From NCBI GenBank assembly GCA_045863335.1, contig BTVY01000001.1, positions 168,671-232,670 of the forward strand: 64,000 nt of DNA, written 5' to 3'. The position numbers and the translations under genes were made by a program. The notes beneath the pieces were generated by a model. That model was not told the origin of the DNA. It saw only the letters and a list, made by a program, of their open reading frames with translations, and did not search any database. Shown piece by piece: positions 27,795 through 45,919 of the stretch. Position 1 is the stretch's first letter. Every line of letters begins with the position of its first letter. This DNA is from Candidatus Hydrogenedentota bacterium (GTDB taxonomy: Bacteria > Hydrogenedentota > Hydrogenedentia > Hydrogenedentales > SLHB01).

Positions 27795-30700
27795 TTATGA
27801 AGCAAGCGTGGGCGCGATATCGCCCGCGCTTTCTTCTTTCTCCGAGGGAACACTCGGAGCGCTTTGGCGCAAGATGTCCGCACAAACCTTGACGTTTGGA
27901 TTGCGCAGTATGGAGAAATGGTCGCCGGGGACCGTGCGAACGTCCACCCCGCCCTGGGCGAAGCCGGACCAGCCACGGGACTCATCCACGTTGGCTTTGG
28001 CCGTTATGCGGCGTTCCGCGACGAACAGGGTGATCTTCCCTTGGATCGGGCGGAGCTTGTACCGTTTGAACGCCCGCGTGTTCGCAAGGGCGATCCGGAT
28101 CCAGTGCCGGGCGAAGGACTGTTTCATGAGTAGTGAGCCGCCCCCATCTACGTCCGCGGCCGATGTATTCAGCGCTTTCTCGTAGGCGCGCGTGACCCCC
28201 CGTTCCTGCCGGGAAAGTATGCGGCCCTTGAGCCTGCCGATCCAGCGGCCGGGCAACGAAGCGGCCAGAGAGAACCATGCGCCGTCGGCCGTGGTCGCGA
28301 GACCCGACAGAGTGAAGAGCAGCCGGGCGCTCACGTTTTCCCGCATAAGCCTCACCCGTTCGGAGAAGGACTTGCGCGAAGCGCCCGGAGCGCGCTGGCC
28401 GGTAATGGTCTCGATGAGGAACACGTGGCCGGCTTCCTCGCCAAGCTGGCGGGCCATTTCGTAGGCGACGGTTCCGCCGAAGGACCATCCGCCGATGCGA
28501 TAGGGTCCCTCGGGCTGCACGGACCGCATCGCGGCGATGTATTGCCCGGCCATCTCTTCGATGGTCTCGCAGGGGGCCGCCTGTCCTTCAAATGCGGGGT
28601 CCTGGAGTGCGTAGACGGGCTGATCCGCCCCGAGGTGATGGGCCAATGCGTAGTATGCGAACACGGTACCGCCGGCAGGCGCTACAAGAAAAATCGGGGG
28701 CCTGGTGCCAGCGGTCCTCAGGGGAACCAGGAGACCGCACTCACCGCTATCATCGACATCATGACCATTGCCGCCGGCGATACGTTGCGATTCGCGCAGG
28801 GCATCCACCCGGCGCGCCATACCCCCAACAGTGGGATCCTCGAAAACGGTCCGTAGAGGCAACGTGATGGCGAAGCGATCATTGATGCGGGACAGCAGTT
28901 CGACCGCCAGCATGGAATGACCGCCGCTATCCAAGAAGTTGTCGTGGACACCGATTCGGTCGCGGTGAAGGAGGTCTCGCCATATACCGGCGATTCCCCG
29001 TTCCGTGTCGGTCCCGGGCTCGCAGAATCCGTCATCCGTCTTCGCATCGATCCGCTCTTGCTGGAGCAGCGCTTTGCGGTCTACCTTGCCATTCGCCGAT
29101 AGGGGAATAGCGTCGGTTACAGTCAGGCTGGTCGGCACCATGTGGTTGGGCAGTTGCCCCTTCAGCGTGTCGCGCAGGCGTTCGATATGGATCTCCCGGC
29201 CGGAGTCCACGACAACGAAGGCGGCAAGCGCGGGACCGCCGGGGCCGTTTGCCCGAGGCAGTACGACGGCCTCCCGGATACCGGGTTGCCGGCAAAGGAC
29301 AGATTCAATCTCTCCAAGCTCGATGCGATGCCCGCGCACTTTCACTTGATGATCGGTGCGGCCAAGGAACTCGAGCGCGCCATCGGGGCGGTAGCGAACG
29401 ATGTCTCCGGTTTTGTACAGCCGCTTGCCGCTCGCAAAGGGGTGCGGGATGAACCGTTCGGCGGTGAGTTCCGGACGCCCCAGGTATTCGCGCGCGAGAC
29501 CGGCGCCGCCCACGTGCAGTTCACCGGGGACGCCAATCGGCACCGGCTGAAGAGTGCGGTCCAGGACGTAGATTTCGGTGTTGTCGATTGGCCGGCCGAG
29601 GGACGGCATGCCGGGCGCTTGTTCGTCGATTTCGACCAGTCCGGACGTCGAGACGACCGTATTCTCGGTGGGGCCGTAATTGTTCACCAAGGAGAAGGGC
29701 AGGCCCGCTGGAGGACGCCGGCGCAGGGTGTCGCCGCCGGTCAGGAGGATCCGCAAGGCGCACGACTCCGGCCACTCAAGGGCAATGGCCTGCTCGGCCA
29801 ACGGCGTCGGCAGGAAGGCAATCGTGATCCCGTGCCGGGTCAGCCAGTCGCGCAGACCGGGAGCTGAGACTCGCGTGAACTCGTCCGGGATATGGATTGA
29901 GGCGCCGGCGGTGAGATAGGGCCAAACCTCCCAAACCGAGGCGTCAAAAGCGGGACCGGCAAGATGCGTTGCGCGGTCGTCGGCGGTCACGTTGAAGGCG
30001 TTCTGATGCCATTGAATCAGGTTCAGCAGACTGTGGTGCTCGATCACGACGCCCTTGGGCTGACCGGTGGACCCGGACGTGTAGATCGCGTACGCGGGGT
30101 CGGCCGGCGATACGAGAATCCCCGGATTGGCCGCCGGGAGTTCTTCGGAATCGAAGCAGTCTTTTATTTGCACCTGCAATGCTTCCGTCGCAGGCAACCG
30201 GTGGTGGATCGCTTCATCGACCACAACGGCTACCGCGTTGGAGTCTTCGATCATGTACCGCAGCCGCTCGACCGGATAACCAGGATCCAAGGGCACGTAA
30301 GCCGCCCCGGTCTTAAGCACGCCGAGCTGGGCGACGACCATATCGATGCGGCGGCTCGTACATACGGCCACGCGTGTCCGCGGGCGCACACGCAGATCGA
30401 TGAGACGTTGCGCCAGTCGATTGGCGAGACGGTTGAGCTGCTCGTAAGTCAGTTCCGCTTCGCCGTCCGTGAGTGCGAGCGCGTCGGGCCGCCGTGCCGA
30501 GTGATCTTCGATACGCTGATGGACGCACCGGTCGAGCGCCAGCGGCACGGCGGTGTCGTTCCATTCGTGCAACAAGGAGTATCGTTCGTCGTCCGTAAGC
30601 AATGGCAAGGTGGCTACCGGCGTCTCCACATCGCGGGCCACGCCGTGCAGAAGGACCGCGTAGTGGCGCAGCATGCGCCGGATCGTCCGGGCGTCGAAGA

Positions 30701-44300: not shown

Positions 44301-45919
44301 CCGCTCGACGTCTTCGGAATCGACCCCGGTTGAACCAGCAGCACCGCATGCACCGGCACTTCGTGTTGTTCGCCGACCGCCGCACGAATCGTGGCCGCAA
44401 CCTGCTCCACATCCAGCCCATCGACGGCATCGCGCGCGACTTCCTGGGCGACGACGAGCAACTCACCGCGTGGGTCTTCGATGGCAAAGGCCGCTCCGCA
44501 TCCCGGGCGCAGCGCGGGATGGCACGATTCGACCGTGAGTTCGATGTCCTGCGGATAATAGTTAATACCGCGAATGATAATGAGGTCTTTGAGACGACCC
44601 GCAACAAAGAGTTCGCCGTCCTGCAGGATTCCGAGATCGCCGGTGCGCAGGTAAGGGCCTTCGCCGCTATCCGCAAGGGTTCCCCAGAAGGTGGCGGCCG
44701 TCTCGTCGGGCCGGTTCCAATAGCCCGACGCGACGCTGGGCCCTTTCACCCAAATCTCGCCGACCTCGCCGTCCGGACGGGGCAGGCAAGTATCGGGCGC
44801 GATGATTCGAACATCCTGATCGGCTGCGGGAGAACCGCAGCCCACGAGCGTCCGGTTCCGTGCGTTGTCTTCCGGGAACTCGCGTACCGCCATGCTGCTG
44901 CCGCGACGCGCGAACGATACCGCAAGCGTGGCTTCGGCAAGACCGTAACAAGGGAGAAACACATCGCTCCGGAATCCGGCGGATTTGAATTTCTGCGCAA
45001 AGGCATCGAGCGTGCCCGGCCGAATCGGTTCGGCGCCATTGAAGGCCACGCGCCACGCGCTCAGGTCCAGAGCGTTGCGTTCATCGTCGGCGATCTTGTC
45101 GACACAAAGCTGATAGGCAAAATTCGGCCCGCCGCTGACGGTCGCGCGGCGCTGGCCCATGGCTTGCAACCACGAGGCGGGTTGCTTCAGGAAGTGCAAG
45201 GGCGACATAAGCGTCGAATCGCAGCCGACAAAGGGCGGAATCAGCACGCCCGCCAGCAAGCCCATGTCATGGAACTGGGGCAGCCAACTGAGCACATGAT
45301 CGTCTGCGGAAAGCCCCGTCGCTTCTCGTATGTAGTTGCAGTTGTGAAGCAAATTGCCATGGGTCACCATCACGCCCTTGGGCGACGACGTGGAACCCGA
45401 GGTGTACTGCAGGAAGGCGAGATTGTTCTCGTCGACACCAGGATTGCGCCATACGTCCGGATCCGCTTCACTGGCGTCGGTCGTAACCCAGCGCAATCCC
45501 GCCAGCGCCGGATGCTCCTGTAAAAGCATTTGCGCCGCTGCCAGGTACTCCGAAGTGGTTAATGCCAGCGTCGCCTGGGCGTCCGCAAACATCGCGAGGA
45601 GCCGCCCGAGCGTCCTTCCGGGACGTGGAGGATAGGCCGGAACCGCCGTCACACCGGCGTAGAGGCATGCGTAAAAAGCGACGTTGAACTCGATGCCGGG
45701 CGCAAAGAACAAAAGGGCGCGGTCGCCCGGTTTGCTAACGGACTGAAGTTCCGCAGCAACGGTGCGCACACGCTCTTCGAATTCGTGATAGCAGACGTTC
45801 TGCGTTGTGTCCGATCCGGAAGCGAGAAGCGAGAAGATGATGGAATCCGGTTGCGCTGCCGTCCGCTCAGCGAGTACATCGATGAAGTTTCGGGTTCTGC
45901 TCAGGGGAAACTTCTCCAA
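38375..45919 (-). CDS. Type I PKS: FAAL-ACP-KS-AT-KR-ACP-sulfotransferase
   Basis: FAAL ([30 protein letters not shown]); ACP GLHSM; KS DTACSS/HGTGT/GHLE; AT GHSVG + HAFHS (malonyl type); [54 protein letters not shown]. Confidence 0.96.

Follow-up and report, generated by a model that had tools for sequence, protein, structure and literature searches.

A polyketide synthase ending in a CurM-type sulfotransferase and coupled to a nonribosomal peptide synthetase in Hydrogenedentota: a predicted assembly line for 3-sulfooxyacyl lipopeptides

The olefin synthase Ols of PCC 7002 is a polyketide synthase (PKS) with the domain order FAAL-ACP-KS-AT-KR-ACP-ST (fatty-acyl-AMP ligase, acyl carrier protein, ketosynthase, acyltransferase, ketoreductase, acyl carrier protein and sulfotransferase), and an ST of the same family is present in CurM, the terminal module of the curacin A pathway; in both systems a thioesterase (TE) works together with the ST. 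Sulfotransferase domains are also embedded in OciA (cyanopeptolin/oscillapeptin) and DysB (dysinosin), nonribosomal peptide synthetase (NRPS) loading modules, where published work matches them to a sulfated glyceric acid in the product. Outside of assembly lines, the gut-bacterial enzyme ErSULT is associated with a 3-hydroxyhexadecanoic acid sulfate ester and with putative sulfated N-acyl amides (JACS 2026, PMC13449962). Here we describe a locus from an uncultured wastewater bacterium of the Candidatus Hydrogenedentota (genome G000, 6.75 Mb in 105 contigs), in which a PKS with the same domain order as Ols stops directly after a CurM-type ST and is followed by a three-module NRPS. Such a two-protein hybrid line most likely yields a 3-sulfooxy-acyl-X-(Phe-like)-Leu lipotripeptide with the sulfate kept, a prediction to which we give about an even chance of being right. 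Coordinates refer to the window, i.e., the whole 64,000-nt stretch of DNA that was analyzed (positions 168,671-232,670 of contig C1), and domain borders are those of profile or pairwise matches throughout.

The locus consists of two overlapping genes:

38375..45919, reverse strand (-): PKS gene, 2514 aa, FAAL-ACP-KS-AT-KR-ACP-ST without TE (Pfam and phmmer)
27795..38378, reverse strand (-): NRPS gene, 3527 aa, docking domain followed by three C-A-T (condensation, adenylation, thiolation) modules and a TE (Pfam and phmmer)
38375..38378, reverse strand (-): ATGA stop/start overlap of the PKS and NRPS genes (sequence reading)

The 3' end of the PKS gene reads GAG GAA GAG CGC TTA TGA, and the NRPS ATG (followed by ACC) sits inside TTATGA, with a Shine-Dalgarno-like GGAGGA located about 10 nt upstream of it; the PKS and the NRPS are translationally coupled. 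Both open reading frames (ORFs) run unbroken across the window. An assembly chimera at 38375-38378, which an earlier note on this DNA had named as a possible objection, was excluded: the same junction was found in 13 further genomes of the phylum; both the PKS stop and the NRPS start recur in L004, an independent 24.5-kb contig of 100% identity, as well as in L005 (97%) and L006 (87%); and contigs from two other studies span the region (X2 record 6, 37528-40420, 102 differences; X4 record 23, 37947-38442, 1 difference). The probability that the junction is a chimera or a pseudogene is therefore negligible, even if frame breaks do occur elsewhere in near relatives, with the PKS split before the ST in L005/L010 (96-97%) and the NRPS split at T1 in L006/L039 (87%). 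These breaks may represent assembly errors or decay.

The PKS is composed of the following parts, all encoded on the reverse strand:

44249..45868 (-): FAAL loading domain, aa 18-557; Pfam AMP-binding 18-401 plus DIP2-like C-domain 445-557
43937..44152 (-): ACP1, aa 590-661; motif LGLHS; Pfam PP-binding
42770..43894 (-): KS, aa 676-1050; Pfam E 5.8e-102; motifs DTACSS, EAHGTGT and NVGHLE
41330..42286 (-): AT, aa 1212-1530; Pfam; motifs GHSVGE and HAFH
39902..40483 (-): KR, aa 1813-2006; Pfam E 1.1e-68; motifs TGGFGGLG and LDD
39404..39619 (-): ACP2, aa 2101-2172; Pfam PP-binding 2104-2170; motif GLDS
38420..39289 (-): CurM/OLS-type ST domain, aa 2211-2500; Pfam Sulfotransfer_3 2217-2428, E 6.5e-31
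38378..38419 (-): C-terminal tail with a putative docking motif, 14 aa ending EEERL-COOH

Among the NCBIfam models, those for fatty-acid--AMP ligases gave the best match to the N-terminal domain, with an E of 3.8e-128 that nevertheless falls short of the curated cut-off. We take the HAFH motif of the AT to indicate malonyl specificity and the LDD motif of the KR to indicate the B-type. The KR-ACP-ST order (1813-2006, 2104-2170, 2217-2428) puts the KR-made beta-hydroxyacyl ACP directly upstream of the ST, and no dehydratase (DH) was detected in the module by the Pfam domain search. The last 341 residues of the protein matched the structures of the CurM ST (4gbm, E 5.3e-98) and the Ols ST (4gox, E 8.7e-84), with PRSGST, PPELH, DKSP and RHP identical to 4gbm in the alignment; PAPS-binding (3'-phosphoadenosine 5'-phosphosulfate) and catalytic roles of the CurM ST residues are said to have been established by McCarthy in 2012. 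An APS kinase is encoded in the genome. A third Sulfotransfer_3 match in the genome belongs to a free-standing 362-aa ORF (L003, C3:189373-189969). Pfam found no TE in the PKS, which ends 14 residues after the ST, so that the locus does not represent a CurM/Ols ST-TE offloading unit and only its ST belongs to that family.

The downstream protein is a complete three-module NRPS:

38220..38366 (-): TubC_N-type docking domain (PF18563), NRPS aa 5-53; E 1.1e-11, 45.1 bits against a cut-off of 26
35115..38198 (-): module 1, C1 (HHIVADG), A1 (code DAMHVGLFTK; A5 core NLYGSAE), T1
31965..35048 (-): module 2, C2, A2 (code DAWTIAGVCK, taken as Phe-like), T2
28797..31898 (-): module 3, C3, A3 (code DAWFLGNVVK, taken as Leu), T3
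27939..28703 (-): type I NRPS TE, aa 3226-3480; Pfam Thioesterase 3228-3335; motif GWSFGG

The architecture given in the earlier note was thus recovered in full: both ORFs matched its positions exactly (38375..45919 and 27795..38378, both on the reverse strand), the ATGA overlap at 38375-38378 was read directly in the sequence, and the domain order from FAAL to ST was retrieved by Pfam and phmmer, including the stop 14 residues after the ST without any Pfam TE match. The quoted motifs of the KR (LDD), AT (HAFH) and ST are all readable in the translation, the 4gbm and 4gox matches with their identical motifs agree with an intact CurM-type ST, and the three-module NRPS appeared in Pfam as three Condensation, three AMP-binding and three PP-binding domains with a Thioesterase. 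The X-Phe-Leu reading of the peptide also stands with the hand-extracted codes: that of A3 equals the Leu code and that of A2 presumably corresponds to the Phe code, which it matches at 9 of 10 positions. The first adenylation domain (35379-36833, -) has an A5 core NLYGSAE instead of the usual NxYGPTE, its code is conserved in the relative G106, and its best PDB match was the second A domain of LgrA.

Specialized condensation or release domains were considered as candidates and rejected. A tree built from 67 C domains did not unite those following an ST in a single clade, with C2 and C3 of the window grouping unresolved with C1; of the 22 C domains that follow an ST in PKS context, 21 have the canonical HHxxxDG (HHTAADL in L032), and only two alignment columns, R281 and L305, were enriched in post-ST C domains, and weakly so. 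The TE is of the Ser-type PF00975 with ordinary NRPS thioesterases as its best PDB matches.

Several lines of evidence suggest that the PKS feeds the NRPS, i.e., the coupled genes, the TubC_N dock, the kept tail and the existence of fused ST-C relatives. The EEERL terminus was found in 11 of the 14 listed proteins running from FAAL to a terminal ST (13 relatives and P0003 of the window), the other three ending in EEDRI, EEERI and QDERV. In the alignment of 11 orthologues, all of which end in EExRL-COOH, E302 and L305 were invariant (11/11), while the rest of the sequence after the ST was not conserved, and the orthologous NRPS ORFs aligned with that of the window from residue 1-3 (dock and C). 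A TubC_N dock on the downstream subunit and a short conserved motif on the upstream tail, the two parts of such a pair, are therefore both present, and EExRL-COOH is a putative docking partner of TubC_N. A predicted complex of NRPS residues 1-60 with PKS residues 2465-2514 scored 0.02 in a run without controls and speaks neither for nor against docking. In 12 of 120 listed homologues the ST and C domains are part of a single polypeptide in PKS context (...ACP-ST-C-A-T...).

Conceivably, the two proteins might work independently, the PKS making an olefin by means of a hydrolase acting in trans (e.g., that encoded at 26790-27767) and the NRPS making a free tripeptide. An Abhydrolase_1 gene does abut the NRPS stop and is syntenic in G106, but independence would leave C1 without a donor and is at odds with the stop/start overlap, with the conserved EExRL facing TubC_N and with the fused ST-C relatives; moreover, the hydrolase is not beside the related cluster of G077, and an entire olefin synthase of the ST-TE type is already encoded on C18 of this genome. 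We consider it highly improbable. This second system (C18:62252-70969) is a split canonical olefin synthase with a 613-aa FAAL ORF followed by KS-AT-KR-ACP-ST-TE (P0090, 2263 aa), whose KS and ST are 63 and 51% identical, respectively, to those of the window PKS and whose TE is 33% identical to the NRPS TE. The only type I KSs of the genome are those of the window PKS and the C18 PKS, and its only three C domains are those of the window NRPS. The other members of the genus with enough sequence also carry both systems, the ST-TE olefin synthase and the TE-less PKS.

On the basis of this domain content, the following sequence of reactions is proposed. The FAAL would adenylate a free fatty acid and load it on ACP1, the KS and AT would extend it by one malonyl unit and the B-type KR would reduce it to 3-hydroxyacyl-ACP2, which the CurM-type ST would convert with PAPS to 3-sulfooxyacyl-ACP2. 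With no TE at hand for hydrolysis or decarboxylation, the EEERL-COOH tail of the PKS would then engage the NRPS through the TubC_N dock, C1 would join the sulfated acyl chain to amino acid 1 (X), and modules 2 and 3 would add the Phe-like residue and then Leu. Finally, the TE would free N-(3-sulfooxyacyl)-X-Phe-Leu in linear form. This anionic amphiphile would keep the sulfate ester, which would block the 3-OH that is used for lactonization by other lipopeptide thioesterases. The activity of the ST on this substrate, the acceptance and passing on of the sulfated chain in C1, the retention of the sulfate and the hydrolytic release are the steps that we infer.

The locus is not a one-off rewiring, since the architecture belongs to a family that is common in metagenomes. 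The ST was found at E <= 1e-30 in 25 of 135 Hydrogenedentota genomes, including all 6 of the genus of the window; as some of the genomes are closely related, such counts do not represent independent observations. A genome search for TE-less KR-ACP-ST followed by an NRPS, which the note had proposed, gave 14 such loci among the 30 ST loci of the phylum (window included), in which the ST is followed by a stop and then by a dock-C ORF; in two others ST and C are fused, 13 are of the ST-TE type and one is neither. The GTDB species representatives contained 206 ST loci, and the best 80 of these comprised six ST-C fusions, eight loci with the ST followed by a stop and then a C ORF, 65 of the ST-TE type and one of another kind. 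All 14 ST-to-C loci within these best 80 of 206 are from metagenome-assembled genomes (MAGs) of Hydrogenedentota (one record titled Nitrospiraceae), Chloroflexota and Gemmatimonadota. Wastewater and sludge are habitats of the carriers, judging by the metagenome runs X2 and X4.

The relatives differed mostly in the peptide part. G106 (87%) has kept the entire neighborhood and the three modules, with the same codes as in the window except for DAWFQGNVIK in module 2, while the contig of G104 (66%) ends inside A1. Three modules are also present in G102 (56%), with the codes DLYNLSLIWK, DAFVCAAVCK and DAAFLANVAK, the first of which we take as Cys-like. In G077 (60%), a member of another family, the PKS is followed by a single dock-C-A-T-TE module (L042/L043, C13:18000-49999) with the code DASTLAAVCK, presumably Tyr-like; the predicted product of this cluster is an N-(3-sulfooxyacyl) amino acid, and its flanks are made up of housekeeping genes (NuoF-like, gluconolactonase, RecO, LepA, signal peptidase, HemN and MutS). 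The PKS-ST is thus kept, while the modules vary in number from one to three and their codes differ, which points to a constant FAAL-PKS-ST head with an interchangeable peptide. No tailoring, transport or PAPS genes were found within the conserved core of the orthologous loci compared.

The placement of the ST relative to the CurM and OLS enzymes, also proposed in the earlier note, was carried out with 141 ST domains from 120 listed proteins (quick IQ-TREE, midpoint root, with a sample biased to the best matches of the query). The STs of the 14 proteins ending with this domain formed one clade (SH-aLRT 99), apart from 66 ST-TE domains, and the group with the STs of CurM, the Ols of cyanobacteria and the ST-TE proteins of Hydrogenedentota was placed outside of it. 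Hence, the TE-less PKSs are not recently truncated olefin synthases, and the TE-less FAAL-PKS-ST appears to be an old, selected design. The ST positions P14, R15, G17-T19, P34-H38, V108-K110, P112 and R138-P140 did not vary among the 11 orthologues aligned from Hydrogenedentota (at least 45% identity), which, together with the presence of the ST in all 14 clade members, argues for purifying selection on catalysis. The same two facts speak against an idle ST or a later removal of the sulfate, in which case the line would make a plain 3-hydroxyacyl tripeptide that the TE might lactonize as in surfactin-type lipopeptides. FAAL-PKS-NRPS lines making 3-hydroxy- or 3-amino-acyl lipopeptides are common, but we regard this outcome as unlikely here.

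In the sister group of NRPSs with a T-ST arrangement, 16 of the 24 A domains directly upstream have codes which we take to be Ser-, Thr- or Tyr-like. The proteins P0013-P0039 (metagenome or MAG records, several titled Acidobacteriota / Thermoanaerobaculia) are NRPSs with repeated C-A-T-ST-C units. Such repeats with such codes suggest on-line O-sulfation of hydroxy amino acids, and for Tyr only retention makes sense, since a Tyr sulfate cannot be eliminated. Because these outgroup STs hand over to C domains, tailoring with retention might, on a bold reading and under the midpoint root, be the ancestral function, and the leaving-group use in CurM and Ols a later specialization.

The fate of the sulfate remains the critical point. 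Retention is favored by the ordinary character of the catalysts that come after the ST, namely C1, an HHxxxDG domain clustering with ordinary C domains, and the Ser-type PF00975 TE. A DH would be a far cheaper way to an enoyl product, and yet the ST has been kept over a deep clade, which was likewise counted for retention, as were the precedents of OciA and DysB and the Ser-, Thr- or Tyr-like codes next to the T-ST domains. A 2025 paper on Ols anticipates that TE-less homologues make sulfated compounds, with the oci papers as its sole references on this point, and Tables S3/S4 of PMC11730487, which list Ols homologues, may name some of them.

The most serious alternative is a transient sulfate, either eliminated during or after condensation to give a 2- or 3-enoyl lipopeptide, or displaced by an internal nucleophile to give a ring. 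All the characterized PKS-type STs known to us (CurM, Ols) are activating enzymes that spend the sulfate as a leaving group. The window ST is 51-57% identical to the ST-TE-type STs and has the same active site. The module has a KR and no DH, and the missing DH leaves a chemical gap that sulfate elimination could fill, the ST then being a PAPS-driven DH substitute. Arguing the other way, apart from the ordinary C1 and TE and the long-term preference for an ST over a cheaper DH, are the absence of any partner enzyme for elimination and the consideration that decarboxylative elimination should be impossible once the beta-carboxyl is tied up as an amide. On balance, a transient sulfate is possible but doubtful. 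The leaving-group precedent and the missing DH nevertheless weigh against the proposed 3-sulfooxyacyl product, as do four further points: no feature separating retention from leaving-group use was found in the sequences of C1, the TE or the neighborhood; the A1 code DAMHVGLFTK has no match known to us; all the A-domain codes were extracted with hand anchoring and read against commonly used code tables; and in the RNA-library runs X6 and X24, where contigs fell on both genes, none of the pieces listed spanned the junction and DNA carry-over is possible.

A variant in which the sulfate passes C1 and leaves only within the NRPS line, by attack of the newly made amide N on C3 to form a 4-alkyl-azetidin-2-one (a beta-lactam lipopeptide) or by a stereo- or regio-specific elimination beyond the reach of a DH, seems quite improbable. 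If true, such a loss would be a PAPS-driven bond-forming step new to NRPS chemistry.

The flanking genes are shared in part by the relatives. Directly upstream of the PKS is a 666-aa ORF (46461-48461, -) that had no Pfam or NCBIfam match and resembles hypothetical membrane proteins in Atlas, with PMT_2 on 11% of one cluster; it is syntenic in G106 and was kept in G104. On the other side, the Abhydrolase_1 gene (26790-27767, +) runs towards the NRPS gene, the stop of which is 27 nt away, and the best NCBIfam rows for its product were all far below the cut-offs. Both genes were rejected as parts of the core, being absent at G077. Further upstream (50652-53529, -), a tandem pair of GFO/IDH/MocA oxidoreductases, of which one has a TAT signal, and a HEAT-repeat protein of 726 aa are encoded, also syntenic in G106. 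The region 13500-17800 has a GC of 0.50 versus about 0.61 and only short ORFs, including double zinc-ribbon and PIN-domain proteins, and is possibly a small island of foreign origin. The window gave no matches when scanned for Rfam families and tRNAs.

Should the sulfate be kept, the locus would stand for a family of lipoamino acids and lipopeptides that are anionic through sulfation and need no more than a minimal two-gene line, in phyla without cultured members, at a time when sulfated N-acyl amides have been flagged as an unexplored metabolite class (PMC13449962). In that case the CurM-type ACP-ST didomain would be a portable tailoring unit beyond its use as an offloading device, and a part with which engineers could equip PKS-NRPS products with sulfate esters. 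Strong surfactant properties would be expected of such molecules, and a lipid-emulsifying or membrane-lipid role might be speculated upon. What is at hand is a widespread, uncharacterized family with a testable product; a new principle would be involved only if the sulfate serves as a leaving group.

Compared with CurM and Ols, the window PKS has no TE, carries a 14-aa docking tail and has a C domain as the next catalyst; its ST is placed in a separate clade, and decarboxylative elimination, the outcome in the ST-TE systems, could not occur. Conceptually, the locus seems closest to the in-line tailoring STs of OciA and DysB, which share the position of the ST upstream of a condensation domain and for which a known product retains the sulfate. 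Accordingly, the claim of the earlier note that an in-line ST handing to an NRPS is without precedent was overstated, OciA and DysB having already been assigned in published work. They differ from the present system in the substrate, which is glyceric acid loaded by FkbH/GA domains there and a KR-made 3-hydroxy fatty acyl on a PKS ACP here, and in the hand-off, which here crosses a subunit boundary; no FkbH/GA glycerate-loading domain was detected by Pfam in the window PKS or NRPS. The SulN/SulM proteins of sulfazecin biosynthesis likewise combine PAPS-dependent sulfonation on a carrier with its preservation through TE release, but the ST acts in trans, a Dap residue is N-sulfonated and the TE forms a beta-lactam. 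The ErSULT enzyme (PMC13449962) is a free-standing sulfotransferase acting on free acids, with no assembly line. The literature searched, with most subscription journals and MIBiG outside its scope, contained no TE-less FAAL-PKS-ST coupled to an NRPS, no product of one and no Hydrogenedentota lipopeptides.

The window system has all the parts of a hybrid FAAL-PKS-NRPS lipopeptide synthetase, namely FAAL-ACP, KS-AT, C-A-T modules and a terminal TE. The lines for iturin/mycosubtilin and puwainaphycin share FAAL-ACP, one PKS extension, NRPS modules and a TE, but install a beta-amino or beta-hydroxy group, and we know of no FAAL-primed lipopeptide line with a CurM-type ST after the ACP. As far as the sulfated ACP intermediate the locus would act as Ols does, and from there on as a lipopeptide synthetase primed by a FAAL.

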